A stretch of 64,000 bases of DNA from an uncultured Candidatus Peribacteria bacterium (GTDB lineage: Bacteria; Patescibacteriota; Gracilibacteria; Absconditabacterales; Absconditicoccaceae). This document shows positions 16,012 through 59,209 of this stretch, in pieces. The stretch is taken from assembly GCA_964563595.1 (NCBI GenBank), contig CAZLWR010000001.1, positions 9,857 to 73,856 on the forward strand, given 5' to 3'. The notes under the pieces were generated by a model. That model had not been told where the DNA came from, searched no databases, and saw only the letters and a program-made list of their open reading frames with translations. The number at the start of each line of letters is the position of its first letter. The first letter of the stretch is position 1. A program made the translations under genes and the position numbers.

Positions 16012-16017
16012 AATTAT

Positions 16018-16225: not shown

Positions 16226-16492
16226 ATGGAAAAAATTATTGGATTGTTTGATGAGCTCACAAGAGTTAAAGAGGAAGTCTGACATGGCTTTGAGAAAGAC
16301 TCTAAGGCAGAACAAGTTGCATGGGCGTTGTTATGCGAAGCACAAACACAACATGGTCCATTGAAGATTTGGGCAGATTGTTTTATTGCAGAGAAAGTGT
16401 GGAATCCTACAGTAGTATTGAGTAGAATGGGAGAGGTAATCTTCTCGGTGATCAATCAAAGTGTTGATCCTCAGGATGTATCTATTCAATAA
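16226..16492 (+). CDS. small hypothetical protein (88 aa) embedded in the tRNA cluster
   Basis: ATG to TAA with one in-frame TGA. It fills the gap between tRNA-Phe and tRNA-Ile. The listed antisense ORFs here are shadows. Confidence 0.5.
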
Positions 16493-16510
16493 AGTCAAAA
16501 TACAATATAT

Positions 16511-16587
16511 GGTCATATAGCTCAGTTGGTTAGAGCGCGTCTCTGATAAGGACGAGGTCCATGGTTCAAGTCCATGTATGACCACCA
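16511..16587 (+). tRNA. tRNA-Ile (anticodon GAT), CCA encoded
   Basis: Acceptor GGTCATA/TATGACC, anticodon loop CTGATAA, T-arm CATGG-TTCAAGT-CCATG, and a 3' ACCA. Confidence 0.9.
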
Positions 16588-30094: not shown

Positions 30095-30111
30095 ACTATA
30101 AGAAAATCCAT

Positions 30112-30183
30112 GGTTCCATCGTTCAATGGATAGGACATGCCCCTGCGAAGGGCATAATGCAGGTTCGATTCCCGCTGGGACCA
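30112..30183 (+). tRNA. tRNA-Arg (anticodon GCG)
   Basis: Acceptor GGTTCCA/TGGGACC, D-arm GTTC-AATGGATA-GGAC (A20 present), anticodon stem TGCCC/GGGCA with loop CTGCGAA, 4-nt variable region, and T-loop TTCGATT. The minus-strand ORF 29954..30184 is its shadow. Confidence 0.8.
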
Positions 30184-30233
30184 TTTTGCTACTACATTAA
30201 CATTCCAATATATAGCTTTATTATCGTCTCAGT

Positions 30234-35788: not shown

Positions 35789-36322
35789 ATGAGTAGAGAG
35801 CAAATTGGACAATTTCTGAATGATATCACGCTTATGACCGATACAGAGCAACAAGATGGTGATGTGGTGAGACTTATGACCATACATGCTAGTAAATGAC
35901 TAGAGTTTGAATACGTTTTTGTGGTTGGTTGTGAAGAAGGTAATTTTCCTGGTAATAATTCTGTTCTTGATCTTGATGAATTGGAGGAAGAAAGAAGGCT
36001 AATGTATGTGGCCATAACCAGAGCAAAAGATCATCTTTTCTTGAGTCATGTAGACTCTCGTATGATATGGTGAAAGACTGTTTCAAGCAAAGTTTCAAGA
36101 TTTATAGAGGAATTGCCTACTGATTTACTGAAATCTTATGATCTAGGATCTACGGGTTCCAAAAAAAGAAGTGTGGACCTTGATGCGGGTGATAGAGTAA
36201 GAAATAAGTTGTTTTGACCTGGTACGGTGAGAGAGATCTGGTGAGATGTGGCCATTGTTATCTTTGATAAACCAAGTGTAGGTCTTAGAAAACTGGATAA
36301 AAGAATGGTAGTAAAGATGTAA
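35789..36322 (+). CDS. UvrD/PcrA-type helicase C-terminal fragment only (177 aa)
   Basis: [28 protein letters not shown] and [21 protein letters not shown] are helicase motifs V/VI. An in-frame TAA at 35735..35737 precludes any upstream helicase core. Confidence 0.7.
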
Positions 36323-37728: not shown

Positions 37729-40700
37729 CTACTTCTTGATACTAAAGTTAATAATGCCTTCTTCTACGTCGCATTCTCCAGTATAATCTGGATTCTCAAT
37801 TGATCATGCGATGGTACCAAGTGTTTCTCTGGCGATGTAATCTCCATATTGAGATAAAATACTTTCAGCTTCAAAGCCAGATATAGTTAAACTAATTCTG
37901 TCGGAAACATCATAGCCAGTATTTTTTCTGGCTTCTTGGATGGATCTGATAAGTTCTCTTACGTATCCTTCCAGTTTTAACTCTGGTGTTATAGTTGTAT
38001 CTAGCATAAGAACTAGATTTCAAGAAGTTATAATATCTCCCGTAAGATCTCCTTTTTCGTATCTCATTTCGTATTCATCTGGCTGGAGTATAATGTCTGA
38101 CACTTTGACTGTATTGTCTGACAAAAGTTCAAACTCCCCGGATTTTGCAAGAGTATTTATTTCTGCAAATCTTGAGCCGAGCTTCTTACCTAACAACTTT
38201 GCATTTGGTATACAGATTCTATTTATTTGATTATCTAGTTTTGCATCTACGATGAGCTCTTTAACGTTTAACTCTTCCAAAATAGTAGTTTCGTATTTTG
38301 GATTGATTTGCTTATTAATTCTGAGTGATTGAAGGGGTTGCTTTACTTTGATTTTAAGCGAACCTCTCAGTGAAAGACCAAGCTCCACAATTGTTTTAGT
38401 TAAATCCATATCTTGTAGTAATGTAGTATCAACCAATGTGTTAATCTTACTCGAGTCAGTTCGATAATCCAAATGTACCGACTCTTTGTTTGTAAGATTT
38501 CTATAGATATACTCTGACAAGAAAGGCATAAAAGGTGCCAGTACTTTGCATAATTCTATAAGAACTACATATAATACATCATAACCAGACATCTTATCAC
38601 TATCATTTTCAGATTTCCAAAATCTGCGTCTATTGCGGCGTATATACCAATTAGTGAGATCATCCATAAAACTAAATAATGGGGCGGTTGCTTTTTGAAT
38701 ATTATAGGCTTCCATTTGTTTATTTACTTCCGTGATGAGTTCTGCTGTTTTTCAGATTATTCGTTTATCAAGATCGTTTTTAAATTCATAACCTACGAAA
38801 TCACTAATACTGTGCTTAGTTGGAGCGAACTTGTCTATATTTGCATAGGTAGTGAAAAATGAGAAGCTATTCCACAAAGGAAGATTCACTTTTCTGATTA
38901 TTTCTTTTCGTCCTTCTTCATAAAAATTCATATCACCTCAAACGAGTATAGGACTAGATGCAAAGTACATCCTGAGGGAGTCAGAACCATGTGTCTTCAT
39001 ACTTTCTTCCGGATCTGGATAGTTACCATAGGATTTGGACATTTTACGACCATCATTTCCTGCGAGCACACCCGTACAAACAACATTGGTAAAAGCAGGG
39101 TTATCAAAGAGCATGACTCACAATGCATGCATAAAGAAAAATCGACATCTCACTTGACCTAGATACTCTGCAACATAATCTGCAGGAAAGGATTGTTCAA
39201 ACTTTTCTTTATTTTCAAATGGATAATGTACTTGAGCATAAGGCATAGATCCGGATTCGAGCCATGGATCCAATACTTGCGTTATTCTCGTAAACTTTTC
39301 ACCTTCACGTATTCACCAAATTGCATCAATATAAGGACGATGAAGATCAAATTCTTTATTCTCTAAAGTATTTCGGTATTTCTCTTTTCAATTTAAAACT
39401 CTCTTTTCGAGTATTTTACTTCCTGTTTGATCCAATGCAAATATATCCTCTCTGCTGCCGCATACTATTATTTTCCCGCTTTCTGCTACCCAAACTGGCA
39501 TTGGAGTTGCCCAATATCTAGTACGACTAATACATCGGTCAGGAGCAGATTCCATGGATTTTAAAAATCTACCATGCTTGAGATGCTCTGGTACTCGATT
39601 TACTTTTTCATTTTCAGCGAACAATCTTTCTTTGATTGATTTGATGTCAATAAACCAGTTGTCTTGCGTTTTGTAGATTAATGGTACTCCTGTTCTTGGG
39701 CACATAGCAACCGAGTGAGTAATAGACTCTTTCTTGAAAAGTAATCACTTCTCTTTGAGTTTGTCCATCACAAGATCATTCGCATCGCGGTAGTATACTC
39801 CTTTCATATCTGCTATTTCCTCGGTATAGTTCCCTTGTTCGTCCAGGGCAGCAGATTGAGTTAAGTCATGTCTTTTTCCTGTTTGAAAGTCATCTTCTCC
39901 AAATTCAGGGGAGGTATGTACGATACCTGTTCCATCGCTGTCAGTCACATAATCAGCAAGGTATACTTTGTGATCATTAGTGCTTTGTCAGACATAGTAA
40001 TCAAATGGTGCTTGATAACTTAATCACTGAAGTTCGGCCCCTTTAGATGTATATATAATCACATATTGAGAAGGATCTTTATAAAACTTAGAAATAAGGT
40101 TTTCTGCTAGTATGAAATACTCCTGTAAGACTAGATCAAATAGCTGTAGGTATACTATATCTTTGTTCACTACGAGTGCCATATTTGCTGGTATAGTTCG
40201 TGGTGTCGTAGTTCGTGCTAAGAAGGAAAATGGGTACTTATCTCAATTACCTTGCAACGCTCAATGTTCTACTATTTGTTTGTAGTGGTAAAGATCTTTG
40301 AAGGTTCTTATCTCTTCTTCACTATCTATGATAGCATTATTTATGGTGAAATTTCGTCATAATTCGTTTTCACTTGTTCATATATATGTATACCCATATG
40401 CAGTATGCTTATCTGACTCTAATAACTGAATCTCTCAATGTATTATCTCCGCTTCATAAAACTCTAGATATGCTTTGTGTGAATTTCTAATATCTTTGTG
40501 GGCACACACTCTTTTTCAAACCTTTACGCTCACTCATAATTCTTCCTGTAACTCTCTTTCTAGGGCTTGAGTCGCAGTTTCTCATAAATCTACTTTACCG
40601 CCGGGAAACTGCCAATTTCCATGTTTTTGATTATAGACCGATAGTATTCCACCTTTACTATCTTTGATTATAGCCTGTGCATAGCATATAAATCCGTCTT

Positions 40701-41394
40701 GCGTGGCTTCATATTGATTTCAATCTGCTAAGGCAATGTCTTTTCAGATTAGTGGAAATTTCACAGTGATAGCCGGATCAGCAATATCTGCATAACTATT
40801 ATCCAATGCTACTTCATAGTTACTAATTGGCGTATTGAGTTTGGTAGAGTATAATGATACTCTCTTGCCTTCATAAATCATACCCTTATCTCGTAGAGAC
40901 TTGAATACTCGCATAACAGATTCCATGTAATCATTGTCCATGGTTTTGTAGGCGTTTTTGAAGTCCACCCATCTTCCGATATGATCTACATATCGCTCCC
41001 ATTGGTCACTGACATTTTTGGTGTAATCATAACATGCTTCAATAAACTCTTTAATACCATGTGCTTCAATTTCTTTGTTAGACTTATAGCCGAGTTTATC
41101 CTGTATTTTTTGTTCTACATAAATTCCATGGCAATCCCATCCTCGTACTCTTTCTATTCTTTTCCCTTTTTGCGTCCAGAATCTTGTTACGATATCCTTT
41201 ACTACGCTGCTCAATAGGCTTCCATAATGTGGTAAACCAGTAATGAATGGTGGTCCATCGTAAAATCTATAGGCATTCTCTTCGGATCTTGTTTCAATAG
41301 ACTTTTCGAAAATTTGATTATCTTTCCAATATTGTAAGATTTCTTCTTCTAACTGGAAGAAATTTGGAGAACTAGGAAGTTTTGGGAAAGACAT
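37729..41394 (-). CDS. ileS: isoleucyl-tRNA synthetase (type 2 / eukaryote-like) carrying an internal Nudix-domain insertion
   Basis: 1,221 aa in one frame. Motifs seen: [37 protein letters not shown] (Trp=CGA at 40213..40215 and 40198..40200), [17 protein letters not shown] (CGA 39535..39537), and GRKMSKS. Confidence 0.92.
40260..40735 (-). other. Nudix hydrolase domain inserted in IleRS between the ..ITVKFPLI.. strand and WTTTPWT
   Basis: The canonical Nudix box GX5EX7REUXEEXGU is read in frame: G-KVDL(G)[15 protein letters not shown](G)V at complement(40531..40599). It is preceded by [31 protein letters not shown]. Confidence 0.8.
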
Positions 41395-41579: not shown

Positions 41580-44500
41580 ATGTTTCAACGAAGTAAAAAA
41601 AAGATTATACTCTTTATAGTACTTATTGTTTTCAGTGTTGATACAGTACTATCTGGTACTATTTTTTGATGGAATAAAGCACGAGCAGCAGAAACAAACT
41701 TTACTGATATTATCAGCGTTTTCATTGATAAAAATATTGCTGCCAGTGCAGGAAGTGACCTTGATTGGTTTACGAAACAGTATTTGTGAAGAAATTACGA
41801 CAATGCTCAGGTAATGGTATTTCAAATTGACCCATCGGGAGTCTCTCCAGCGGATATGGCTAAGATCAATCAAAATCTCTATTTGGAATGAAAAAAATGA
41901 GTTCCTAGTAGGTTGATCGGGACCGTTCTTATTGGTGATTTGAAATTACCGGTGGTCAATAAAGACTGATTTGTTTTTTCAACTATCTATCCGTTAGTAG
42001 ACTTTGAAAAACCTAAATATTATTACGATAAGAATTCAGATTATTTTCTTTATCAGTCCGAAGGCAATAGCCAACCTGAAATACGGCATAGTGTGATTAA
42101 CTTTGCGAATGATACGAGTAAGTACAAAATATATCTAGATAAACTGAAACAGTACGCTGCGGATCCGCAGTCGTGGGTGAAACAAGGTGTATGGTATGAT
42201 GATATCATCCATCAAAAACAAACTCTCAACGCTGATAATATTTCTAAATACGTTAACAATGCTGTGTTTAGCGAAGACGTAATGTACAATAGATATACCA
42301 ACTTGATGGTTGATATCTTCCAGGCCTTGCACAATAGTGGAGTAGTAGATACTTTGGGTGACTATGATGATCAGGTTATTAATAATTTGGAAGATCCTTA
42401 TTACAATGATCCAGAATTTCAGGAAGTGAAAGATCAATATAAAGGTCAGATAGAAAAGTTTTGGAATTTGATAAAATCACTAAAATCATTGGTAGGTTCG
42501 AATAATACCGACTCTTCAGATCCAGAGCCTTCAAATTCTGCCTTGGGCACATTGCCCAATAGTAAGTTTATCAATACCTTATTTATTCAAAAGGTGGTTG
42601 ACGGATTTATGAAAGATTATGTAGAGTTGTATGGGACCCTCTATTTTGATACCAAAGAGAAAAGGTTGCAGCTTGGTGGAAGATATGTTGCTGGACAAAC
42701 AGGTACTGCAGTAGATGATCATATTACGATGACTAGTAGATGGGATGAAGTCAGTAAGCAATTGTTAGCTGATGCGAATACGAAGCTGGAAAAAGCACTT
42801 GATGATAAAATTGAGCAGGAGGGATATAGTATGAATGTCTTGGTTCCGACTAGAGTGGATATCAACGGTTGTAACAATGTAGAAACAAAAGACTATGATG
42901 CGAAGAAATCGTATGAGGTGTACTATTTTGGTAGGCCGGCTGAGGAAATTGATAACGCTGAGGATTTTGGTATTTACCGTGGTACCTTCAATAATATTAG
43001 ATCACTTGTAAAGCTTGATGGTTTCGACTATACCAGTTGGATGGATGCCCAAGAGAATCAATCAATTGGTGCAACCAGGGGAGAGAATGCAAGGGAAGTG
43101 GAAGCACATAGAGGCTATGATTTCTCATTGATAGAATACGATCAACAGGAATTTGAAAGGGTAAAGAGTATTATGCCTTTTAGTAAACATAAGAAAAAAA
43201 GAAAAAACATTGATAAGTTTATCAACTATTACCGAGCAGGATATACGCCACTCAATATTGACCCTAACAGTGAAGATGTGAGACTGAACCAAACAAGAAT
43301 GGACTATACACAGTTGTGGAATCCTTGGAAGAATAGAACATTGGGCGGACCTGTATTTGATATAGCTTGAAGTAGAATCACTACTCCTGATAGGAAAATT
43401 AATTTCAGTTATGGATCGGATGATGATGAAGACGAAGATGATGGAGATGAGGATACGCCGGATATTGTTACTAAGTCTTATTCAGGTTATTCTGATAGTT
43501 ATTTAGGAGCAGACTTTTTTGGAACTACCTTGCAGGTTGCCAGAAATAATGGTAAGTGGATAAAAGTTCAGAAAAGAAAAGTAAGAAAAAATGGTAAGCC
43601 TAAGAAAAATCGAGAGGATGTTAGACTATTTGCTTTGGGTGGATTATCTAGCAATGATGGTTTATTCCTCAAAAATCCTAATGATGACGGCTATATTACG
43701 ATAAATAGTTGTGCGAGCAATAACCGAAATCGTTATTTTAATTCAGTTGATAGTAGATATTTCCATAAATCACCGACTTTAGATGAGCTCTACGGTAAGT
43801 TCACCAATCTCAATAAGGTTAAAATGGATATCAGCTTCGGCTGTGACTCTCCTGATAATGGCAATTATGCTGAGGGTCAGCAGTGCCAAGGAATAGAGTT
43901 TAGACGAAGTGATTTCTTACCGGGCTTTAATGATAATTCCGCCTCTCCCTGGTATTTATCTAAGGATGATTATTTTATAACCTGAGGCAAGATTTATTTC
44001 AATAGCACTGCGAAGTTTTACTTTGCTGGTCAAGATATTGATTTGAGTAACGTAATAGGTGAACTTACTGGTGGAAAAATAAAATTTCAATATGATGGTA
44101 GAAATATAGCACTAACGTATGCGAATGCTACTTTTGATTGCGAAGAGCTGGAGACCGACGTAGAAGAAGGTCTTGCTTGTGTGGGTTTGAGTTTCGAGAT
44201 AGATCATAGGAAGCACTTTATAGATTATAAATACTTTGACTATGATACTACTGGTCAGGTTATTTCATTTTATCCCTGAGCAAAAATTACTGTCATGAGC
44301 AAGGATTATCCCTTGTGAGGCATGGTGGTCCAAGTCAATGGTGATAAGTGAGAGTTCTCTGGCAAACAACTTCAAATAGGTGGTATGAATGAATTCACCC
44401 TCGAGAGACCGGTTGATTCTCCTAGGTATGTCAATTTCCAGGGAATAGGAGGGGATAAGTTGACTTGGGTCTATCCGAATATGTGGAAAGTGGCGGTCTA

Positions 44501-47500
44501 TAAAGAAGTAGATGGTAAAAGAGTACTTAAAACCATAGAGGAGATACAGGATGCTTTAAAACAATATCTGCGTGATAAAGTAAAAGATTACAATAATCAG
44601 CTTCAAGACCAAAGAAATAAGAGATTTGATTACTATAATGGTAACGAGTGAGGAGCTGCAAGAAGAAACCGAATTGATAAATTTGATAATTATGATACGA
44701 GTATTTCGCCTTTAGTGCATGAAGATAATACACAGCTTAATCTGAGATCTTACAAGTTGTTACCTGAAAATTTCTTGATTGATGGCTTGGCGACGACACG
44801 AGAAGGAGAAGCAATCAGCAGCAACGATATGCTTAAGGTTATTGCTCAGCAGCTCTATCATCAAAATGTGATGCGGTTGCAACTGCCAATTGACACCAGT
44901 AAAAAAGTCTTGGATGAAGTGAGTTTGATCCAATCGTTTGCCGATATTAATCATAAATCCAGGGAACTTTATTCCGAATACTTAACTGAGCAACCAAAAG
45001 ATGCTTTTGAGAATGTTCGTGCATATGATTTAGATTTACCTTATTATAATCTTAGTGGTTACGAAGCTGGATATATCAATAGTGATGGAGCGGACTATGT
45101 GCAGTTTCAAACAGTACCGCCACTAGTGAAGCTTATCCAAAAACAAAAAGCAAAAGATACTCCTCCAAAACCAAAGACGGCTGAAGATCTAGACACCAGC
45201 AGATGTGCGAATCTTATACCTGCAAGTTATGTGGTGTCCCTATCAAAACGACCTGCGGCATTTAAGTGCTGGCTTTCTGATATCACTTCTTCAAAACTTT
45301 TTGATGTAAAGATTTCTTTTGCTGGCTCTGCAAATGGTGTCTTTTGATTGGGTAGTGATGAAAACAGTTCTGGACGACTGGAAGATGCTTGGCAGCAAGG
45401 TACTGATCAGTTTAAAACCGAGCGGAAAAACTATTCTCAAGGACGAAGGGCTACGGTGAAATGAGAAGATACGGGTATCGCTCCTGATGAAAGAAGAGAA
45501 TTGGCGAAACAATTAGATAATCTGATCATCAAACCTACTAGTTTTTCTCCTGCTTTGACTGCGTGAGTGAGACTAGCGATTTCCACCAAAGAGGATTTGT
45601 GATCTTATACTATTCAGATTTCTAGTACGGGTGCCAACTGTTTGAAATATGTAAATGGGTCTAACTTGTGCCAATCACCGCAATCTTTACAAATAGCATG
45701 ACTGTATTCCAGCAATTATGATTTTACTTTCACAAAGTTGTTTGAAGGGGTTGGCGATATGAATATCCAAGTTAAAATTTGTAAATCTAAATGTGTTTAT
45801 AAAAACATAGTAATTGCTGTCCAGCCATCTGAAATTAGTAAATTAAAGTTTGTACACCCTATGGGTGATCAGATCTATCCGGTGGCGAGAGGTGTGCAAC
45901 TGCCTATGATGACCAATGCTTTTGATGCATATGGTAATAGCATTGGAACTACCTTATATGATTTTATTGTAAAGACTTCTCATAAAGGGTGACTCATCTA
46001 TGATAATGAACTTACTCAACAATTTCAAATCAGTTCATTCACCGATGCAGGGTTTCTACTAGATACGATTTCTGTGAATGGAAATAAAGAGACAATAACT
46101 ATTGCTCCAAATCCTTCTTTTGTCGCTCTCAATCCTTCATTACCAAAACAAGAACTTACGTTAGATATCGTGGATCCGAATGTGAGTATCATTACTAGTT
46201 CTACCGTAGTTCAGTTACCAGAAAGTAGTAGCGATTTAGAAAAGACAAGTGATGGCGTCTCTTACACAGATATTTCTAAACTGACTAAGATAAGAGTGGT
46301 AGTTAATAATGGTCAAAAGTTATATGCTGTTGTCTCAGCAAAGTCTCTATGAGGTAAGTTTATTGCTGGTATCAAAGGTACAAAAAAAATAGCTAAACCG
46401 AACAATCAATATGCTACTGTGGAGACATTCATTCCCGTAGAGGAGGTGCTTTCTACTGGAGGTTTTGTAGAGTTTTATCTATATCCCACTATGAAAGCAG
46501 GAGAAGATAGCCTCCAGATTCAAGTTGGTCAATCAAGTAAAAATATTACCCTTGAGGTAAAACCGGCAAGTCCCAAAAAGACCAGCATCAATATTGATAC
46601 GGATGTAATGGATTTGCAATGAAAGGTTGATGGTACTATAGCAGTCACTGATATCTGGTGAAATATATTACCAACTTCTGTGAATGTATTATTATGAGCA
46701 TATGGCAATATTACTGTTGACGGAGTAAATGGTTCTGGCAGTGTTATTGCTATTGCTTGAGAAAAGCAAATTACTGTTCGCCCGGTATATCCCTGAGGAC
46801 AGGGTTACTTATTTGTTACTATACAATGAGTCCCATTTGATCAACAATTTCCTGATTATCGTAGTATACTTGTGCAAAATAGAGCACGACCTATAGAAGA
46901 TATAAATGTAGCTTACCTCAATCTTTACGGCTCAGATCGAGCGAACCAAGTTGATAAGCAAACAAATAAGATAATCTGACCAGCAGTTCTTACGGACAGT
47001 AATAAAACTTTATCGCTTACTACTCAGTATGGAGATCCATCTCAAATCTACAAAACATTGTTCGCAGTAGATAAGAAATGACAGATCAAACAATGATGAA
47101 CAGAGAGTATTGAACTCGCTTTGTCTAATGAACAACTTGGATATCATACTGAACAGTATGGGTTCTTACCTATCGGTCAAGCCAGTAGTTTTGGTATGCA
47201 AGTAGTTTCAAGTTTGGATGGAGGGCTTGCCGGAAATGCTTGGGCTGTTAAGGTTTGAGAAATCAGTTCTACCATACAATCAATTGTGGTTGTAGGCAAG
47301 CAGTTGCGTGTCAATGATCAGATTATTATAGATTTGCAAAATGCTGTATGGGATACCAAGGTAAGTATAAAGTATGCAGGAAATATAGGAAACTATACCA
47401 AGCGAAATATATATTATGGTAATGACATTGTTGCTCAGTTTATTCAAACATATGCTTTGGATACTACCTATACTGATATGCGAAGATCTCTTGTGGATCC

Positions 47501-50500
47501 TACAAGGTATACAGTGGCGGATGTTTTGGTATCTCAATACCATGATCAAGGAATCGGTATACTGGATAATGCTGCTAACTTGAGCGACGAAGATAAAAGC
47601 GTTCCTAGTATCCAACATAGTGAGGATAGTAAATATAATATTGGATTTGGTGACACCTTTAAACCGCTTACACAGTTTGCTCAAGGTAAATCAGTGGGTG
47701 AGTCTTCTGTCGCCTTTGCAAGTGAGTTTGTTCTCAATCTGTGAGATCCGACCTACCGTATTTATGAAAAAAATAAACTAGTAGATCATACAAATTATGA
47801 TGGCTGACTTGGTGTTACTGCTTTCGCTGATCCCGATAAAATTATCCAACAGGTTATGGACATAAATCGAGATAAGCAGGGCGATAGGGATTTATTGGTA
47901 GTATACGCAGACGGTTCGGTAAGGCTATTGATATCAAAAGGTAACAAACAATATGTTAAAGTATGAGACTTGGCATATATACAAGACGGCATCCAAAAAC
48001 TCTATGTAGGTGATGGTGATGGTGACGGTTATCAGGATCTCTTTGTGCATACGATGGCCAATCAGTTGAGATTCTATAAAAATTATGAGTGAGAAAGAAT
48101 TGATGTAGATGGTTATCCTATTTGTCTAGACATAGAGGGTGGGGATAAAAATCTAAATGGTGTCTGGCAATGGTTTCTTACAGATCCAAACAATGATAAA
48201 GTTACCGATATTGTTATAAATGATAAAAATAATCAGATCAAATTATTCTTGGGATGAGGATGATCTACTTTATTTAATTTATGATTTGGTTGAGGAAATT
48301 ATATATCCAAAGATAAGTATGCTTGCGACCCGGATTGGAAATCCAGACAGGAAGGTAAAATTGCTACTATCAAGTCATTCGCCCCAAAGCTTGATGGCAC
48401 GCAAATCACTGACGAATCTTTGGTGCATCGAAATGGTCTTAGCACGTCAGACACAGGAACTATTAATCCTAATGTGGATTCTGCAGATGACCTGGAAGAT
48501 CCTGATAGGATTAATGTCGACATACAATTGGGTAATTCTAAAAAACCAAAAGATGTTATAAATCTCGTGAAGAGTCAGCTTATGTCTACTTTTAATCCGC
48601 AAACATGGATTACGGAATATACAAATTCATTAGATAACACCATTACTCTTGATGCTGCCTATAAGCCAGTATATGAAACAATTCCTGGCGAGACCGTTTA
48701 CAAACAATTGCAGTCGTTACTTACCACCGATAAATTGGCTTCCTATAAAACCTTTACTGACTTAAATGGTGGTAAATTAGAAGATGGCGATATAGTGAAA
48801 ATAAATATTACTATCCAATGAAAGTGAGCAGCTAAGGCAACTTATATTGAGAAACTCTCTGGTCCGCGGGAAATTCCCGTCAGTGGTACCCAGCAGGTAT
48901 GATTTTTCCAAGGTAACTTGAATTCAGATTATACTTTCATTTTGCAGCCTTGACCGAGTTATGTGTTTATGATTGATAATATAAACGTATGAGCAACAAC
49001 AAACTTTGGTTACCATGTAGTATATAAATCACAACAAATAGTAACTATTCAGCATGGAGAGTGATTTACTGATGTCAATGGAGTAGGTGGATCTATTGGT
49101 AAAAACCTTATACCTCATGCTTATGCCCAATCGGATAATACGCCGCCTTGGCTTGAGATAACACCTTTGGACGGATGTGCCAAGTTTAAATGGAAGATTA
49201 CTACTCCCAATATATGACCCATTTTATCAAATTGGTTTGTAGAACAAAAGATTGACCTAGAACAACAGATAAAAGATAAACAGAAACAAGACGAAGAGAA
49301 ATATACCGAAGGCATGAGTGATACGTTTTCTGATCTGGTAAGTGATACAAAGGATGAAATAAATAGTGAGCTAAAAGATACGTATCTGAGAGAATCCCGG
49401 AGACAAAAAGGTTTATTGAAAGACGACCCCGCACTCAAAGCTATTGAACAATTTGCTTATACTACTGAAGCACTCAGCAATCTCAGTATCAATAATAATC
49501 TGAAAATAGGAGGTTTTGGTGCGGATATTGATCAGTTGTTGGATAATAAAATTGGTGAGCTTACAAAGGGACTTTGTGAAGGATTTAAAGTTGGGCAAAA
49601 AAACTGTTCAGGTATACCTATTTTGAGTAGTCTTCCGCGAAATATGGCTTTCTTGTCGCCTGGAGATATGCAGGTTATGGGATGTAAAATTTGGAAAGAT
49701 AAGGGTATACCATTGTTGCGGTTCCCCGCAACCTTACAAACCCCAGTCGGTCCGGTGCCTTTCATAGGACCTATTGGCCAAAAATGACCGGGAGATGGAT
49801 TCTATCGATTTGGTGGATGAACTTATACGTCTTTGATCAGAATGTATGTCTCACCCACTTTAACAGCAAAGCTGGGAATTGGTATCTGTTTCGGTCCTTA
49901 TACAGCCGGTATTAAATTACCAAAACCCTTTAAGGATATTATGGGCAATTGTATCGTATTTGCAGTAGATCCAGGACTTGGTAAATGTGAGCAGGTGAAT
50001 GAATGATGACCAAGTGACTATAGTTCTTATGTTATCAATAAGGAAACAAAAGAACTAGATGATACCAATACTTGTAATGATGACATCACTGTTAAGAATT
50101 CTCCACTGAAGTTAGTAGAGACCTCAGTAAATACTGCTGATAACTGGCTTGATTCTGTTCAATGAGAGCATGGGTTGGTAATAAAACTTGGATGACACGC
50201 CAACCTCACCAACTACAATAGTATTGCTCTCAGCGATTTTGTTACTAAGGTAAGACTTGAGGGTGGCAATCCTTTAGATTTACAGATAAAGGGAGCAAAT
50301 GATAAAGGTTTAGTGAGCTGTCTTATCAATCAGTTCGCTGATAACCAGATTAGATATATCATCAATAATCTGACTAGTATGGATATCAATATTGTCTTAC
50401 CGGATTTGAGAGGCTTGGGAAGACAAATAGTTGGAGTAGCAAATGTATTCAATAACAATGCTTGGCAAGAAAAGCAAAGCAACGAAGCGTTTTCTGATTA

Positions 50501-53500
50501 TGCTTCTCAATATGAAAAAACTCTCAAACATAATACTGGTAGTCTCAAACAATTTGTAACAGCATGACAGAGTAAACAAAAACTTACCAAAAGACTCAAT
50601 ACGGTTCTATCAAATCCTTTTGAGAAATTAGCATTATTTTTCGCTGATAGTGAATTAGTAAGGATCAGTAGTAGAGATGTGTTGGTAGAAATACCTTGGA
50701 TATATACGGAGGACATAGTTACTCTCAGATGAGTATATAGAGCTTGGCGAGAGAGAAATCAGCCGGTCCTCAAAGAACGACAGGACTTTGCTATTGATTT
50801 TGTGAAACAATGTGAGGCGAAAACGGACGATTTCGAGAGACAAAATTGTATGATAAGAGCCAACAAAATTATACAACTCAATAATCAACTAGGCCAATTT
50901 GAAAAATCTATCAGAAGGAATCTTCAGGTATTGGATGAATATGGTGAATTTCCAAGTAAGGTATATGACCTATTGCATGGTTATGACACTTATATTTATG
51001 ATCTATTTAATTTTGCTTATGGTACTATTGATGCAGTAACGAGCTGGCTATCGAAGCTTGCAAGAGGATTTGAGGCTTGGGTAGACTTTATTGTATCCTT
51101 GATAGGTATTCTTAAAACCCGGCAGGTATTGATTGATTTTTCAGTCAACTGGAAAGAGAAATGCAGCAAATGTACGGTAGATAATTATTCGGCTTATAGT
51201 TGCTCCTTTAGTAAGTTTTGTCCCAAATTACCGGTATTTAATATACCTCCATTCAAAATACCAGATATTACAATTGATCTGAGCAATATAGATTTACGTA
51301 CTGATATTGTATTACCGAAGTTTAGGTTCCAGCCTAAAAGAATCTGATTATTTGATAATATTAAACAATTTGGTTTGCCTGATGTGCCGTATCCTACGCA
51401 AATTGGATGGCTAGATAACGAAATCAACCTTAAGCTACCTTCTATCCCGCTGATACCATCACCGCCAGATTTGGATGCAATTAGCTTACCAAGCTTTATT
51501 CCTCAAATCAAATTCAAAGGTCCTACACTGCCACCAGCACCGAAGATTCCTAAGATAGCCCCAGAACTTGGCTTAGCAATTGATATCGCTGATTTCATTG
51601 GAAGAATATATTGTTTGGTAAAGTGAGGTATTGGATTGGTCGGAGAAGCAGGGCTCAAGTCAAGGATTGAACAAATGACTCAAAGAACTTGGGCAGTAGA
51701 ACCATTCGATAGTCTCAAGTTACTTATACCAAATGCTCCTTTGCAAACTCTCAATCTCTTCAAACCCCAAAGGGACGAGGGAGGCAGTTTAGATTTCAAA
51801 CTGGAAGCCTTTGCGGATGTTAAAATGTACTTTGATGGAGTGTATGGATTATTTGATGGAATAGCCGAAAGTATCAATACTCAAACAAGGAAGGTGCAAA
51901 GAACGAGTACTGAGGTACCTGCTTTACAGACAGTAGGTGAATTTATAGACAAGGCTAGTTCAACATTCATTGATGCTACTGATAAAGCAACAAACGAGAG
52001 TATTCAGACCAATATTAATATTAACCCTTTTGGTTACGTAGAAACATCAGATTATCATTCAATCAATAGTAAGATCAAATGAGATCTTGCTTATTTCACT
52101 GAAAAAGATGATCAGCCATTTGCACAGGGAAGAAAATTGCTTGCTGCTGATATTGTTAGATCCTATGATTTAGATACCACTGTGAGAATAAATACAAAAG
52201 GTATGGATGAAATAAAAACTCAAGTTAGTGAGGTATTAAATCAAGAGTTGAAAGAAAATAGTGAAGTGAAGAATTGGATACAACAGGATTGGGACGGTTG
52301 GCTTGATCACATCATAAGTACACAGTATGTAAGCGACGATAAAACACTGTATTCCTTAAAAACAAACCTTCTGGATATAGATCAACAGACTTTGGACTAT
52401 GTTGGTAATTACGATATCGCTAAAGAGTATGTTGCTACCGAAAAAACAGTGATAGATGGGTATGTCAACGGTCTTGCAAATTCGGATTATGAAACTTTAG
52501 GTATGCAAAAATCAGATTATGATAGATCAGCAGAATATTTGAATACTCTGAAACAGAACGTTGATCTGGCACGAAACAATGTAAATGCTCCCAAACAAGA
52601 AATTGATTCACAAATGCCAGCGAATGTGGATGTTAATTGATGAGAATGAAAGCAACAAATCAATTGTACCTTGTGTAATAAAGAACCTGGTGATCCTGTG
52701 CTACTTTCTCAACAAGGCGGTAACACTAATTCACCTACGAGCAATACCTTTGCACTTGGAGGAGTAGATGATCCAACTAGATATCTCAATGGATACTTTG
52801 TGAAAGGAGATGACGATAATTACCACAATGTTATTACCAATATGGATAAGTGAGAACAACTTAGTAAGAAGAGTTTCGAGAAGGATATTACCAATGATGG
52901 GTTGCATGAAGTTGTCTTGCGGGATGAACACAATGTGTATATCAAATATGCAGATAAAATTTCAAATACTTCTAACCCAAAACAAGGGAAGCATGTTGCA
53001 AACGTTGTTACTATCGTAATAGATTCTGTTGCTGATATGGAGAGCCAAGTAGATGCTTACGGCTATTATGGCAGTCGAGCTGGTAAGACAAAAATTCGAT
53101 CTCAGGAGCGGATGCCTAAGGAATGGGAAGTAGCATGACAAGCTTATCAGTCTATGACTTATACGGTTTCCAATGAAATTGAGTCTGCGGGTGACGGCGT
53201 AGTGGGATATGCAGTGAGATATACTGATACTATTACGAAGACGCTTAGTAAAGATGCCGATTATGATTATATGATTATTTTGGATACCGCATTGCAGGGC
53301 AAACCACTTAGCGATATTGATATTGATGGCGTCCATTTGCAAGCCGATGAGGTGCAGATTATATATGTTGATCCGGGTCAGCAAAGTATCAGTGCTGTTT
53401 TGAGCAATTTACCTAGGAGATGGTACTATAGTCAGATCACTAAGTTATCGAGTAAACAACAGGTAAGTAAATTATTCGGATTTATTCCTTTCGGATCAAA

Positions 53501-54569
53501 AGATACTCTGACAAGAATTTATAAATCCTCTCCGCGATCCAATAATGAAACTGCGGGCATGCAGATCATTGCTGATACGAGTGCTCCTTACGCTGATGTG
53601 AAATTGGTTCGTACTCAAAAACCACTTGTTGTTGCTCAAGGAGATAGTATGTTTGGCACGATAAAAACGTATTACACGCTTAGCGGTAGTTGGTATGATG
53701 ACAGTAAGGTAATTAAAAATCGAGTATACAGCGGTAACGTACTTATTGCATCCGGTGATCATGATCTTATATTCGTATCTGGCATCTATTCTGATAAGCC
53801 AGTTAAACTTACTTACCAATTGGTGGGACAGGATAGTGCTGGTAACATAGGGCAGAAAACCGTAGAAGTAAATCTATGATTGCCAAAGATTACCGTCGAT
53901 AATGTTGATACAAATACTATATGACAATCTGATGTACTCTCGAGTTTGAACACTGATATAGATAAGTGAACTGTGCAATTTGTGAGGGTGAGAAATGGAG
54001 TAGAATCTGTTTTGGAATCCGTATTTGGTAAGAAGAAATTATTTGATACCATCACAGATCAATTAGTAGTTACTTGAGGTAAATTTGGGTTTAAACAAGA
54101 TATAGGCTTTTACGATGCAGATGGTAAGTATCTCAATGTAAGCCTAACTCCTGCTGGTCAGATAGTAAATACTAATCCTGCAATAAAAGTTACTGTGGAT
54201 TTCGTGGATAATGTTCCTAAGATTGTATTATCAAAAGATAATCAGGAATTATATCGTATCTACCTTAAACCAAAAGCATTTGATAGCGCTAAAGGTATCA
54301 CTATTTTAAATGGGGCATACGACACGTTGAGAATGCCAGTAAGTACGCCTGCGCTTGGTCAGTTTGCCGGTGGTGTATGTATCAAACCAAAGAACGGTGT
54401 ATGTGAGATTATGATTGCTCCGTCAGGCTATATATTTATTTCTAAACCATATCATAGATTATATAGAGGATACTATAAGTTTGAATCTGGGAAAGTAGTC
54501 TATGGCATACAAAAAGGTAAAGAAACGGTAGCTGAAGTAAGAGTAGAAGTAGAACCAGTCAAAAACTAA
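41580..54569 (+). CDS. giant signal-anchored surface protein (4,329 aa), putative adhesin / host-interaction protein
   Basis: All 20-plus standard-code fragments between 42093 and 54569 are in frame 0. I read every inter-fragment gap and found only TGA, never TAA/TAG. The start is ATG 41580 (an upstream in-frame TAA lies at 41469) and the N-terminus is MFQ-W-SKKKIILFIVLIVFSVDTVLSG. It ends at TAA 54567..54569. Confidence 0.85.
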
Positions 54570-56661: not shown

Positions 56662-58089
56662 TTATTGTATTGTTTCCCAGTGTACTCTTGTTTGCTCCAT
56701 GGTGTCTCTATTTCTGATTGTTACGGTACCGTCTTCGAGTGATTGATGATCAATACAGACACAATACGGCGTACCGACTTCATCTTGTCTACGGTATCTT
56801 TTACCAATATTCCCACCGGCATCATATTCACATTTGTAAGTCTTTTTCAGTTTATCATATATTTTTCTACCTAATTCTACCATGTTTTCATCTTTTTCTA
56901 TCAAAGGTAGTATAGCGTATTTGATTGGTGCAATCTCGAAAGGAAACCTGACTACTACTCTTGTTTTATCATCACTGCCTTCTCCCTGCGAAGCAATGGT
57001 TTCTTCATCGTAAAACTCTAGCATACTTGCCATCATACAACGACCTACTCCCATAGATGTTTCTACGCACCATGGTATATATCTCTGACCTGTTTTTGGG
57101 TCAGTATATTGCATACTTGTTTTTGAATATTCTTGATGTTGCTTAAGATCAAAATCAGTACGATTGTGAATGCCTTGCACTTCTCCAAATCACCATGGGA
57201 AGGCAAACTCGATATCCGTAGCTGCTGCTGCATAGTGAGCGAGTTTATCGTGATCTTTATATCTTAAATGTTCTGGAGATATACCAATAACCTGAGTCCA
57301 AAAATCCATACTTACCTTTTTCCGCTCATCAAATACCTTCATAGCGTTATCGGGATCGGCTGGTACAAAGTATTCAATTTCCATTTGTTCGAATTCTCTT
57401 GTTCTAAACAAAAATTGACCAGGAGTAATTTCATTGCGGAATGCTTTACCTATTTGAGCCAGACCAAAAGGTATCCTATTCCTCGTAGTGTCGCATACAT
57501 TTCTAAAATCAGTAAATAAACTCTGGCAAGTTTCTGGTCTCATATATACTTTGTTTGATTCGTCTGCTACGGGTCCAAGGGTAGTATTAAGCATAAGATT
57601 GAAATTTCTGCATTCTGTCCATTCTGGCTTTTCTTTTAGTCCCTTTGGTCGTATTTCTTCTTCAACAATAAATCTTCTCATGTTTTCATTTCCTCGGGAT
57701 TCCGGAGATCAGTTGAAAAATTCATATTCGCTTGGATGCTTTTTATATGAGTCCTTTTGTCTGCCTTCGATATACTCTTCGATAAGTTTATCTGCTCTAA
57801 ATCTTTGTCCGGTTTTTTTGTCGTCAATAAGTGCATCACTAAATCATCCTACATGACCGCTTGCGATCCAGGTGGTAGGGTGGGCGATTATAGCAGTATC
57901 CATCAAGATAACATCATCACGCTCTTGCGTATAATATTTTACCCAAAGATCAGTAATATTTTTTCTCAACAATGCTCCATATGGTCCATAATCCCATGCA
58001 TTTGCTAATCAACCATATATTTCACTATTGGGATATACAAAACCCTTTCTCTTGGCTCGTGATACGATTGTTTCTAGTGGGAAAGACAT
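56662..58089 (-). CDS. glyQS: glycyl-tRNA synthetase (homodimeric class II, GlyQS type)
   Basis: Motifs seen: [88 protein letters not shown], and RYIPWCVETSMGVGR. Confidence 0.92.
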
Positions 58090-58188: not shown

Positions 58189-58626
58189 TTATCCATCGAA
58201 TTTTGCTTTTCTGTTGGCGAGCGTTTCGCCTCTTTTGCGTTTGTTGTTTAATCTTTTTTCTTTTTCTTTTTTTGGTATCTTGGTTTCTTTTCTTTCTTTG
58301 GGTTCTATGAGACATAGTTCGATCATCTGTTTGAGTTTGCGAACGGCAGTGGCGAGATTGGTGATTTTACTTCTTGTTTCTTGGCATACGATAGTCAGTT
58401 TCCCTTCTGCATCAATTTTATTACGATACTTTTCTTGTATTCTTTGTTTAACTCCCTCAGGGAGTTTCGTATTGCTCAGATTCCAATAGAGTTGTACTCT
58501 GGACTCTGTTTTGTTGACATGTTGTCAGCCCGGTCAAGAACTCCTCGAATACTGCGTTTCCACTTCTTCTCTTACGATGCTATCAAGCACTGCTTGATCA
58601 AGTACTGGGTATTTTGTTTTGCTCAT
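58189..58626 (-). CDS. arfB: alternative ribosome-rescue factor ArfB (peptidyl-tRNA hydrolase, GGQ domain + basic tail)
   Basis: RSS-G-PG-G-QHVNKTESRV has the second Gly of GGQ encoded by TGA (58525..58527). The C-terminal tail is Lys/Arg-rich. Confidence 0.85.
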
Positions 58627-58747: not shown

Positions 58748-59209
58748 ATGGGTGATCCGCTTATGCTTCAAGAGGATTTGTATTTTCATGGCGTGAAGGC
58801 CCTGATTACAAACAACGATAGAAAGATTTTATTGTTGCAAGTAAATACGATCAGTCTTCGCAATCGAAGTGGTGATCCTTATTGGGATATGCCTTGAGGA
58901 AGAGTTTGCCGTGGAATGAGTATTGAAGATACCTTGCAAAGAGAAGTGAACGAAGAAATGTGAGCACATGATATCACTATAGAACATTACATAGGTACTG
59001 CTTTGTCACCTATCAGGATACCCTATGGAGATACTGATTATGGTTTATTTTTATCGGTATACGATTGTTCTATCTCCGACTGAGATGTTGTGTTGAGTGA
59101 TGAACATCAGGCTTTTGAACGGTTTGACATAGAAGATGCATTACACTTATTATCAGTAAAGTATCCATCCTCATTTTTGGATTTGTTAAGGTGATATTTT
59201 CAGAAATAA
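58748..59209 (+). CDS. Nudix-family hydrolase with a degenerate Nudix box
   Basis: WDMP-G-GRVCRGMSIEDTLQREVNEEM-G-A has REVNEEMG intact, but Met replaces the first box Glu. The C-terminal DEHQAFE-W-FD has Trp=CGG (59120..59122). Confidence 0.75.

Follow-up and report, generated by a model that had tools for sequence, protein, structure and literature searches.

The ileS gene and its genetic code

The window analysed here is the whole 64,000-nucleotide stretch of contig CAZLWR010000001.1 from an uncultured Candidatus Peribacteria bacterium. Its minus strand carries ileS (37729..41394, stop codon TAG included), which encodes a 1,221-aa type-2 (eukaryote-like) isoleucyl-tRNA synthetase (IleRS) recognized by TIGR00392, tRNA-synt_1, Anticodon_1, and DUF5915. 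Translated with table 11, the gene breaks up into many short ORFs. With TGA read as glycine (Gly) it becomes a single 1,221-aa ORF containing 20 TGA codons, and an intact type-2 IleRS is obtained only when TGA is read as Gly and CGA as tryptophan (Trp). The CGA=Trp reading is supported by alignment, as 10 of the 14 CGA codons lie at columns where 82-115 of 120 relatives have Trp as the majority residue. Both Trp of the WTTTPW motif are CGA codons within such columns, and the CGG codon is absent from ileS. The UGA=Gly/CGA=Trp translation adopted in the first-pass annotation is borne out by the single ORF and by these Trp columns.

The ileS product scored 806.1 bits against NCBIfam TIGR00392 (cut-off 621.4) in two stretches with an insert between them, and matched tRNA-synt_1 at 1.6e-114. 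The HIGH-type signature is PHYGS (aa 55-59; 41218..41232, minus strand), a HYGS variant also seen in two relatives (L001, L003), and the KMSKS loop is found at aa 784-788 (39031..39045, minus strand). Alignment, motifs, and a proxy model delimit the CP1 editing domain, nested insert included, to about aa 200-565 (39700..40797, minus strand). Within it lie WTTTPW, GTGIVH..D, and a 16-residue editing-site motif (aa 487-502; 39889..39936, minus strand) whose G-T-G..H..P-E-F..D residues are invariant in the IleRS alignment (A3). Together with Anticodon_1 and the C-terminal DUF5915, these parts describe a complete, editing-competent-looking type-2 enzyme. The best PDB matches were type-2 IleRS from human, yeast, Candida, T. 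thermophilus, and P. megaterium (IleRS2), with E-values of about 1e-183 to 1e-195, whereas type-1 IleRS matched at only 1e-61 to 1e-86. Assignment to the mupirocin-resistant MupA/MupB enzymes (NF000257/NF000258) was rejected at 593-623 bits against a cut-off of 1900.

A Nudix domain nested in the CP1 hairpin

The insertion site, termed site A, is bounded by two motifs. The upstream anchor is the first CP1 strand, DPAITVKF (aa 206-213; 40756..40779, minus strand), which is nearly invariant across relatives, and the downstream anchor is the Thr-rich editing-site motif WTTTPWT (aa 394-400; 40195..40215, minus strand). They are 180 residues apart in the window IleRS but 15-17 in insert-free relatives. 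The hairpin between them holds an insert of about 172 residues; in relatives and in solved IleRS structures this stretch is about 4-17 residues long. In a HMMER alignment to human IleRS (9w01_B), query aa 5-216 matched 5-214 and aa 389-1170 matched 219-1013; because the alignment breaks there, the insert was bounded at aa 217-388 (40231..40746, minus strand). This alignment, PF00293, and PDB Nudix matches define it as a nested Nudix module of a long type, hosted, as the alignments show, by the first beta-hairpin of the CP1 editing domain. The insert had previously been placed at 40260-40735, which falls inside the aligned bounds. As CP1 is itself set in the Rossmann fold, the arrangement amounts to three levels of domain nesting.

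The Nudix HMM search suggested in the first-pass annotation returned PF00293 at 45.3 bits for the full-length product and at 49.2 bits for the region excised from it, both well above the gathering cut-off of 21.1. The alignment is confined to the N-terminal half of the NUDIX model (positions 8-72 of 134). The Nudix box, a 23-residue GX5EX7REUXEEXGU motif (aa 266-288), lies exactly at the complement 40531..40599 reported before. Across 39 aligned inserts, conservation reaches at least 90% at E272, R280, E281, E284, E285, and E326. E326 (40417..40419, minus strand; E126 of alignment A1) is the downstream Glu of LLESDKH and, by analogy with Nudix enzymology, is a candidate extra metal ligand or base. 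Searched with phmmer against the PDB, the insert matched Nudix enzymes only, led by 4dyw (3.9e-10) and BdRppH (7e-10), with NudG/ORF135, MutT2, and MutT among the further matches. These results confirm the insert as a Nudix domain, with a match far beyond chance, and with it the earlier claim that a Nudix domain sits in frame within a type-2 IleRS that is otherwise intact (PF00293 45-49 bits, TIGR00392 806 bits).

The closest known proteins, by sequence and structure, are MutT/NudG-type enzymes; those compared were E. coli MutT (1mut/3a6t), NudG/ORF135 (2rrk), a B. pseudomallei enzyme (4dyw), and Bdellovibrio BdRppH (3ees). The insert resembles them in its fold, its GX5EX7REUXEEXGU box, and an upstream W-x-F-P-G-G-K. 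They are, however, free-standing proteins of about 130 aa, whereas the insert is nested in another enzyme and, unlike them, bears lineage-specific YExTxDGF and SENxLGW...IIDDxxEI extensions. The first of these, YEATQDGF (aa 228-235; 40690..40713, minus strand), is the N-terminal extension motif of the long type, its Y-E-x-T-x-D-G-F pattern being common to long-type inserts and to two free-standing homologues (P0190, P0166). The second is a conserved 22-residue C-terminal tail motif (aa 341-362; 40309..40374, minus strand), which across inserts reads S-(E/D)-N-x-L-G-(W/Y/F)...I-I-D-D-x-x-E-I. Although the best NCBIfam matches were MutT-type, NudG, and MutT models, the insert fell below every NCBIfam equivalog cut-off: 41.5-44.5 bits against 97.9 for the MutT 8-oxo-dGTP diphosphatase (TIGR00586) and 48.5-52.3 against 156 for NudG (PRK10546). 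PRK08999 was likewise rejected (52.7-56.7 bits against 245). By sequence the insert is MutT-like, assignable to neither the MutT nor the NudG family.

Structure models were built for a homologue (P0015) whose insert is 42% identical, not for the window protein. Its insert alone was modelled by AF2 with a pLDDT of 90.2 and a pTM of 0.84. Foldseek returned 448 PDB matches at E<=1e-3 with Nudix hydrolases throughout the top matches listed, and TMt values of 0.65-0.75 to MutT, BdRppH, and NUDT15. Modelled together with CP1 (pLDDT 90.4, pTM 0.88), the homologue gave a TMt of 0.83 to the T. thermophilus IleRS editing domain (1wk8, 1ue0) and of about 0.68 to Nudix enzymes. In two proxy models the long-type tail forms a beta-hairpin and helices (pLDDT 91-98). 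Because the phmmer alignment to 4dyw spans aa 20-120 of the window insert and the homologue model agrees, the fold is considered complete, the PF00293 alignment itself covering half of the model. In the homologue, a full Nudix domain is predicted to pack in a defined manner on the editing domain.

The presence of the RNA pyrophosphohydrolase BdRppH among the top structural matches, and of the module on the tRNA-handling CP1 domain, would be consistent with an RppH-like enzyme that processes synthetase-bound RNA (tRNA-Ile or some other) at its 5' end or nucleotide cap. This is highly improbable, as the BdRppH, MutT, and NudG matches are equally good and carry no subfamily signal, and the NCBIfam RppH models score below the MutT/NudG models.

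A chimeric assembly or mis-joined contig could in principle have put a Nudix gene fragment into ileS. The insert, however, is in frame at both ends and has a GC content of 35.3% against 36.1% for the remainder of the gene. TGA provides 10 of its 18 Gly codons, half of the TGA-Gly codons in ileS, two of them in the Nudix box (G271 and G287), and it also uses CGA for Trp (W347, in the C-terminal tail) as the host gene does. The insert has native composition and the host's deviant code. Moreover, the same architecture recurs in independent NCBI, JGI, ENA, and Logan assemblies and in 20 GTDB species representatives, leaving an artefact with a practically negligible probability. An intein was rejected, since a Pfam scan of the protein at E<=1 found no Hint/intein family and the junctions are variable, without a Cys/Ser...His-Asn-Cys/Ser/Thr pattern. 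A group I/II intron was also rejected, the Rfam gathering scan of the window having returned tRNAs only.

Distribution and exchange among relatives

A Nudix domain occupies the same IleRS site in those 20 GTDB species representatives and in 48 of the 120 closest IleRS in the databases, and every GTDB relative with more than 60% backbone identity has it. Comparison of these sequences indicates that the insert is fixed in the window's clade, where it is old and vertically inherited and its presence is not hypervariable, and that it occurs widely in the UGA=Gly Gracilibacteria/Absconditabacterales lineage. It is no oddity of a single genome. Comparable inserts at the site in orthologues proved to be Nudix domains, and not the chance look-alikes that the first-pass reading had named as a refutation. 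Such inserts could help to mark out these uncultured bacteria, which are probably predators or epibionts. PF00293 is already precomputed on such IleRS in public protein databases, without remark. Many database entries are table-11 fragments or have a Nudix box in which Trp replaces Gly, which shows how such domain architectures are concealed by alternative genetic codes.

Identity to relatives is 30-46% over the insert against 63-77% over the backbone, and the insert evolves much faster than the backbone. The perfect catalytic box and downstream Glu are kept in the window copy and in about 90% of inserts. The RE/EE residues are lost, with the full-length domain retained, in five clade members (P0008, P0017, P0019, P0023, P0027) and in L009; therefore catalysis is not what maintains the domain everywhere. 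A non-catalytic module could be proposed, serving as a nucleotide-binding sensor (of Ap4A, ppGpp, or NTP levels) or extending the editing domain structurally or by tRNA contacts, so that IleRS is modulated and hydrolysis is irrelevant or vestigial. These losses, the fixation of the domain in the window's clade, the integrated interface suggested by the Nudix + CP1 homologue model, and the use of the same hairpin, next to the Thr-rich editing motif, in IleRS, LeuRS, and ValRS all point that way. Such a role is nevertheless unlikely, given the intact box in most inserts and the fact that near-identical sister-clade enzymes either have or lack the module, as would not be expected of an integrated regulatory element.

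Exchange is seen in the sister clade, where orthologues are 92-94% identical yet differ in the cassette carried. At three orthologous loci with common downstream synteny and 89-93% DNA identity upstream of the site, one has a short Nudix (L086), one nothing (L087), and one a long Nudix (L088). The cassettes there are mosaic in distribution and AT-richer than the backbone. Synthetase tolerance of domain insertion can thus be followed in a natural experiment, and the permissive insertion sites may be useful in protein engineering. One reading of this pattern is a hitch-hiking or selfish cassette, copied from a free-standing gene and lodged in a permissive loop of a large, essential, and highly expressed protein, where it persists neutrally with any activity it has being unrelated to IleRS. 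It would fit the mosaic distribution, the quick divergence and occasional catalytic decay of the inserts, and the existence of free-standing homologues, such as the long-type P0190 in L089, which lies beside a free-standing HAD. However, the insert showed neither flanking repeats nor mobility signatures, nor any intein or intron signal. Fixation over a clade with 63-77% backbone identity and a mostly intact catalytic box argue for selection, and a selfish origin of its persistence is judged quite unlikely.

Bacterial synthetases are known for a textbook conserved architecture; the accretion of accessory domains is regarded as mainly eukaryotic, and the domains are usually non-catalytic and terminal. 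In the UGA=Gly lineage, IleRS has three insertion sites (A, B, and C), which hold Nudix (two types), GNAT, His_Phos_1, Ser_hydrolase, and HAD modules, and IleRS ORFs reach about 2,000 aa. Many relatives combine Nudix at site A with His_Phos_1 at site B or C; in the window IleRS, Nudix is the only module and there is no GNAT match. The homologous hairpin of LeuRS (P0178/L090) and ValRS (P0174) also holds Nudix modules. The insert is one of several interchangeable cassettes in three IleRS sites, and Nudix modules occur in two further synthetases. The Ile, Leu, and Val synthetases of the lineage are plugged with swappable small enzymes, a habit that appears undescribed.

Several known systems share parts of this arrangement. 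NF040702 (ileS_w_GNAT, 'isoleucine--tRNA ligase, N-acetyltransferase domain-containing') is a curated precedent for an IleRS with a foreign small-molecule enzyme domain. The window IleRS was rejected as a member (259 bits against 1999), its domain being Nudix and not GNAT, and even the lineage's own GNAT-bearing IleRS (P0072, P0071) reach only about 248 bits. Mycobacterial MutT1 (NF052459; 9cxx, 3fjy) unites a Nudix and a histidine-phosphatase domain, the pairing seen in many relatives. In MutT1, however, the two form one dedicated enzyme, whereas in the relatives they are separately inserted into a synthetase; direct matches of the insert to MutT1 were weak. CP1 itself is a hydrolytic domain nested in a host-domain loop, and the Nudix module lies one level deeper. 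CP1 is universal, ancient, and coupled in mechanism to aminoacylation fidelity. The Nudix module, by contrast, is confined to one lineage, can be exchanged, and is dispensed with in near-identical orthologues. The domains appended to eukaryotic synthetases (GST, WHEP, EMAPII) represent a similar accretion but are non-catalytic and terminal, while the insert is catalytic in type and nested. The first-pass annotation knew of no described fusion of this kind, and our literature search agreed, finding no publication that describes a Nudix nested in IleRS. Neither 'Nudix' nor 'acetyltransferase' occurs in the text of the AARS Online paper, whose tables list the domain superfamilies of synthetases.

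Possible roles of the insert

Judged by its motifs and distribution, the insert is most likely an accessory nucleotide pyrophosphohydrolase that is not needed for aminoacylation. The fuller proposal, that it is an active accessory Nudix hydrolase beside IleRS and part of a lineage-specific cassette system, seems to us about evenly balanced. The module would be an Mg2+-dependent pyrophosphohydrolase performing accessory 'housecleaning' of a nucleotide-type substrate beside IleRS. The most likely substrates would be of the (d)NTP type, possibly damaged, or dinucleoside polyphosphates such as Ap4A. Because near-identical orthologues function without the module, it would take no part in aminoacylation or editing chemistry. 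On this proposal, a small number of permissive surface sites in three class Ia synthetases of UGA=Gly Patescibacteria (IleRS, LeuRS, ValRS) would carry exchangeable small hydrolases or transferases, drawn as cassettes from free-standing genes in those organisms.

Synthetases produce Ap4A from aminoacyl-AMP and ATP, and the Nudix enzyme NUDT2 degrades it (PMC4856261). The functional logic of a synthetase-Ap4A-Nudix axis (for example LysRS/NUDT2) is alike, although the partners there are separate proteins. By this analogy, the coupling of the insert to Ap4A or AMP-derived by-products raised in the first-pass annotation is plausible, and the locus provides a definite case in which a possible physical link of aminoacylation to nucleotide housecleaning or Ap4A turnover can be tested. 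The idea that a reduced genome economises by such fusion is weakened, since the same window holds a separate free-standing Nudix gene (58748-59209) at a distance of 17 kb and near-identical orthologues lack the insert.

The rapid gain, loss, and swapping, in near-identical orthologues, of cassettes AT-richer than the backbone would also suit an immunity embedded in the target, by which the cassettes destroy or modify nucleotide-like class Ia inhibitors or toxic mis-activated adenylates in place. MccE/MccF-type detoxification of aminoacyl-nucleotide antibiotics follows a comparable logic. The enzyme classes are diverse, all being small-molecule modifiers, and in IleRS, LeuRS, and ValRS the cassettes adjoin the editing pocket. 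Furthermore, no profile in the libraries searched gave the insert a higher score than PADLOC PDC-S07 (67.6 bits, positions 12-104 of 135), a Nudix-like candidate single-gene defence system. This support is purely circumstantial: PDC-S07 is unvalidated and its likeness to the insert is that of a generic MutT-like core, and no defence-island context was found around the window ileS. Moreover, Nudix enzymes normally cleave a pyrophosphate bond, which is missing from aminoacyl-adenylates and from most known IleRS inhibitors, and in the window's clade the insert is old and vertically inherited. Immunity of this kind is accordingly very doubtful.

It is also rather improbable that class Ia synthetases of UGA=Gly Patescibacteria act more generally as docking platforms near the editing pocket for a pool of rapidly exchanged enzymes (Nudix, GNAT, histidine phosphatase, serine hydrolase, and HAD), with in-situ action on nucleotide-type by-products, toxic mis-activated adenylates, or natural inhibitors; if true, synthetase quality control or self-protection would have a modular layer that has so far gone unrecognised. 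Set against the housecleaning proposal, the modules recur beside the editing motif of three paralogous synthetases, a position that could link them to editing or tRNA handling.

The ileS gene and its reading frame

The ileS gene (minus strand, 37729-41394) encodes a 1,221-aa product which, by all of the sequence tests applied, is an isoleucyl-tRNA synthetase (IleRS). It scored 806 bits against TIGR00392 (cut-off 621), Pfam assigned tRNA-synt_1, Anticodon_1, and DUF5915 domains to it, and the motifs PHYGS, KMSKS, WTTTPWT, and DGTGIVH...D were all found. The protein is a type-2, eukaryote-like IleRS, whose best solved relatives are the human, yeast, and T. thermophilus enzymes and P. megaterium IleRS2. 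In a HMMER alignment with human IleRS, residues 5-216 correspond to residues 5-214 of the human enzyme and residues 389-1170 to 219-1013; therefore approximately 172 residues (aa 217-388, nt 40231-40746) are found where the solved enzyme has approximately 4. The segment is anchored upstream by the first CP1 strand, DPAITVKF (aa 206-213), and downstream by the Thr-rich editing motif WTTTPWT (aa 394-400), with 180 residues between the two as opposed to 15-17 in insert-free relatives. The first-pass annotation had placed a Nudix hydrolase domain inside IleRS at this point, and both the observation and its structural interpretation were confirmed.

Under the standard bacterial code (table 11), the minus strand at 37.7-41.4 kb appears as a series of short ORFs. 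Reading TGA as Gly produces the single uninterrupted ORF with 20 in-frame TGA codons, which coincide with conserved Gly columns. The gene was translated with code 25 and with CGA as Trp. This second recoding had been proposed from the sequence and holds: 10 of the 14 CGA codons fall in Trp-majority columns (Trp in 82-115 of 120 relatives), including both W of WTTTPW and the W of DWCISR and of GWDCHG, and the remaining four are found in aromatic, hydrophobic, or variable columns. Arg is encoded by CGT, CGC, and AGA, and CGG is never used. With both reassignments the coding fraction of the window is 92%. The window has five tRNAs. One of them, tRNA-Arg(GCG) (30111-30184, +), has an anticodon that would read CGY only, as would be expected if CGA no longer belonged to the Arg box; no tRNA able to read CGA as Trp was found among the five. 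TrpRS (PF00579; 36355-37338, +) directly adjoins ileS, and GlyRS (tRNA-synt_2b and HGTP_anticodon; 56662-58089, -) lies 15 kb off. That the synthetases for both codon-gaining amino acids (CGA=Trp, UGA=Gly) are near each other may be a coincidence. In this genome, where UGA is no stop, 58189-58626 (-) encodes an ArfB-like peptidyl-tRNA hydrolase of 145 aa that has an RF-1 domain and a GGQ motif.

At both ends the insert joins ileS in frame, and its GC content is 35.3% versus 36.1% for the rest of the gene. TGA accounts for 10 of its 18 Gly codons versus 10 of 59 in the backbone, placing half of the gene's TGA-Gly codons in the insert. Two Nudix-box glycines are encoded by TGA, and one CGA codon is found at an aromatic position. 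Given these codons, the domain is readable correctly only in the host's own code. Table-11 fragments from Logan, NCBI, and JGI (P0002, P0005, P0006) rejoin under code 25 into IleRS with Nudix at the same site. Misassembly was rejected based on the in-frame junctions, the matching GC content, the host code in the insert, and the same architecture in independent assemblies. An intein or intron was also rejected. Insertion in the manner of a transposon, with duplicated target sites, was rejected as well, the repeats around the insert being short and attributable to chance. The window also contains a free-standing Nudix gene (58748-59209, +; 153 aa; PF00293 46 bits, model coverage 5-122/134), in which the first Glu of the box is replaced by Met (GRVCRGMSIEDTLQREVNEEMGA); its recent duplication as the origin of the insert was ruled out, as the two are only 30% identical over 80 aa.

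Many of the public entries P0007-P0126 either result from translation by table 11 or with TGA read as Trp, or exist as fragments only. Mistranslated IleRS have a Nudix box with Trp at Gly positions (e.g., GKVDAWET) and show Arg where Trp belongs (LARTTTPRT). Automated annotation therefore under-reports the architecture. The public database copies already carry PF00293 precomputed.

The Nudix domain and its predicted fold

The domain assignment was borne out by Pfam PF00293, which the insert matched at 45-49 bits, well over the gathering cut-off of 21.1. A perfect Nudix box (GX5EX7REUXEEXGU) is found at 40531-40599, exactly where it had first been read; the catalytic box is intact and a downstream Glu is conserved. 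The top NCBIfam matches were MutT-type families, every one under its cut-off. A sequence search of the PDB with the insert returned Nudix enzymes only, with 4dyw as the best match (3.9e-10, approximately 100 residues), followed by BdRppH, NudG/ORF135, MutT2, and MutT.

Structures were modeled on the database protein P0015 (insert 42% identical), the nearest homologue with this insert type that had been translated correctly. Its insert alone was predicted with a pLDDT of 90.2 and a pTM of 0.84. Foldseek returned 448 matches from the PDB at E<=1e-3; those listed at the top were all Nudix hydrolases, with a target-normalised TM of 0.65-0.75. When the insert was predicted together with the rest of CP1 (356 aa; pLDDT 90.4, pTM 0.88), the two-domain model matched two sets of structures independently, the T. 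thermophilus IleRS editing domain solved in isolation (TMt 0.83) and Nudix enzymes (TMt ~0.68); among PDB chains, none spanned both the Nudix and CP1 halves. From these scores, the Nudix and CP1 folds are both predicted to be intact, with the homologue as proxy. Moreover, the high pTM of the P0015 model suggests a defined Nudix-CP1 packing rather than a floppy tether.

Distribution and exchange of inserted modules

At this hairpin (site A), a survey of the 120 closest database IleRS found a Nudix-type insert in 48 and a GNAT domain in two more. Twenty GTDB species representatives, labeled Absconditabacterales, Gracilibacteria, Patescibacteria, or 'Peribacteria', also have Nudix at site A. UGA is a sense codon in all carriers found, and taxa outside the carrier group have 0-23 residues at the site. 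An exhaustive search of 1.84 billion representatives, with the IleRS flanks included in the profile, returned 101,935 Nudix proteins at E<=1e-3 and 20 at E<=1e-30. Approximately 10-15 matches spanned the full profile including the flanks, and these were IleRS-length proteins or fragments. Judged from these searches, the Nudix-in-IleRS family is small and restricted to one lineage.

In the window's own clade, a long-type insert (with N-terminal YExTxDGF and C-terminal SENxLGW...IIDDxxEI extensions) is found in every member (approximately 30 database sequences), as well as in all GTDB relatives with more than 60% backbone identity. From this universal presence, the insertion is old and vertically inherited there. 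Insert divergence within the clade far outpaces that of the backbone (30-46% versus 63-77% identity); between the window protein and P0007, identity is 77% for the backbones and 30% for the inserts.

In a sister clade, backbones that are 92-94% identical have nothing, a short Nudix, or a long Nudix at site A. The NJ backbone tree is rough, and the mosaic claim is based on the direct comparison of three syntenic orthologous loci, L086 (NCBI), L087 (JGI), and L088 (ENA), which have common downstream synteny. Their DNA is 89-93% identical over the 300 nt before site A, and after it L086 and L088 are 90% identical. L086 has a short Nudix at site A and nothing at a second site (site B), L087 has nothing at site A and His_Phos at site B, and L088 has a long Nudix and Ser_hydrolase, respectively. 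The site-A Nudix cassettes of the sister-clade loci are AT-richer than their genes (35-39% versus 45% GC). As near-identical orthologues differ in their site-A content, the module is dispensable for IleRS function and exchanged as a cassette. In L087 (JGI 3300079086), a PemK-family toxin gene (102-545) lies directly upstream of the insert-free ileS, which has a 47-aa low-complexity insertion soon after WTTTPWT that is absent from the other two orthologues.

Alignment to the insert-free relative P0044 mapped three recurrent IleRS insertion sites. Site A, the CP1 hairpin, contains the Nudix and GNAT modules. Site B, near P0044 positions 495-520 in the CP2/CP3 zone, contains His_Phos_1, Ser_hydrolase, His_Phos+GNAT, HAD+His_Phos, or His_Phos+Ser_hydrolase, and site C, directly before the anticodon-binding domain, contains His_Phos_1. 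Some IleRS ORFs are as long as 1,900-2,165 aa. Very long IleRS (1,400-2,165 aa) are encoded at the loci L001 (Logan SRR32406774), L005 (JGI 3300042652), and L019, L040, and L052 (GTDB), and their two further sites are occupied by modules of the histidine-phosphatase, serine-hydrolase, GNAT, and HAD kinds. In L005 the code-25 ORF stops early at locus position 8022 and IleRS-like sequence resumes downstream, which suggests a frameshift or a further element.

The profile search picked up Nudix modules in other class Ia synthetases as well. The LeuRS P0178 (TIGR00396 684 bits, cut-off 548) has a long-type Nudix between GKSEGVEVNF and TVYTTRPET, in the hairpin homologous to site A, and a second Nudix module as well. 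A ValRS fragment (P0174) has two Nudix modules after ValRS model position ~204, just before the Thr-rich motif. A LeuRS fragment (P0223) contains three Nudix stretches and HAD; summed over its modules it reaches 106 bits, exceeding the NCBIfam MutT whole-protein cut-off of 97.9. In the P0178 LeuRS, encoded in L090 (2001-5540; JGI 3300056789), and in the P0174 ValRS, a module lies in the site-A-homologous hairpin just before the TTRPET/TSRPET editing motif.

Free-standing proteins of approximately 220 aa have the same long-type N- and C-terminal extensions. One of these, P0190 (220 aa), is the product of a genuine separate long-type Nudix gene in L089 (Logan SRR14092367), and such proteins are plausible cassette donors. 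The tandem in L089 (1656-3663) also comprises a HAD_2 gene, itself free-standing, and the gene for a 222-aa protein; HAD and Nudix are also among the synthetase-embedded domain kinds. Lineage-wide modular decoration of class Ia synthetases is the more interesting result, and the window gene is a fixed, long-resident example.

Precedents, candidate functions, and neighboring genes

Free-standing MutT/NudG-type Nudix enzymes have the fold and box in common with the insert, but not the context. An enzyme domain in IleRS has a precedent in NCBIfam ileS_w_GNAT, a different family whose cut-off was missed by the window protein and by the GNAT-bearing IleRS of the lineage. The other closest known entities are the CP1 domain itself, a hydrolytic insertion that is nested too, mycobacterial MutT1, in which Nudix is joined to a histidine phosphatase, and the synthetase-Ap4A-NUDT2 axis. 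Open-access papers and bioRxiv yielded no account of any aminoacyl-tRNA synthetase with a Nudix domain, an absence which is no proof. The inspected papers pairing 'Nudix' with 'isoleucyl-tRNA synthetase' linked them via (p)ppGpp/mupirocin or reference lists. Neither Nudix nor acetyltransferase appears in the AARS Online paper, where the domain superfamilies of synthetases are listed in tables. Domain accretion by synthetases is known; the catalytic domain, its nested placement, and the cassette-like turnover would be new.

On the favored reading, the insert would be an active pyrophosphohydrolase on a nucleotide-type substrate, with IleRS carrying this accessory function. Damaged or non-canonical (d)NTPs (MutT/NudG-like) are candidate substrates, as are dinucleoside polyphosphates, which synthetases make by AMP transfer from aminoacyl-AMP to ATP. 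Nudix enzymes such as NUDT2 hydrolyse the dinucleoside polyphosphates made by synthetases (PMC4856261). Because the insert reaches no equivalog threshold, no choice is made among these candidates. The earlier functional interpretation, a possible coupling to by-product removal, is plausible but too narrow, and the idea of gene economy in a reduced genome is weakened by the separate Nudix gene in the window.

Three observations speak for rival readings. Five members of the window's clade (P0008, P0017, P0019, P0023, P0027) have lost RE/EE residues and kept the domain, whose retention in these catalytically degenerate proteins points to a role in structure or sensing. The cassettes turn over, and they comprise varied enzymes that modify small molecules; both features are reminiscent of systems for conflict or immunity. 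Among PADLOC profiles, the best match of the insert was the unvalidated Nudix candidate PDC-S07, and the defence and phage profile libraries matched the insert with generic Nudix profiles only. In three paralogous synthetases the modules recurrently occupy the hairpin beside the editing motif, a hint that they may be connected with editing or with the handling of tRNA.

Divergent from ileS, a giant 4,329-aa ORF with a hydrophobic N-terminus is found at 41580-54569 (+). Giant genes are linked to predatory bacteria. Absconditabacteria have been described as predators (bioRxiv 10.1101/2023.11.21.568195). A 177-aa ORF at 35789-36322 (+) contains the UvrD-like helicase C-terminal domain only and may represent a helicase gene that has been truncated or split. 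The tRNA cluster at 15937-16587 (+) comprises Pro(TGG)-Thr(TGT)-Phe(GAA) and, after a gap, Ile(GAT); an ORF call at 16213-16575, on the strand opposite to the tRNAs, overlaps tRNA-Ile (16511-16587) and is probably spurious.
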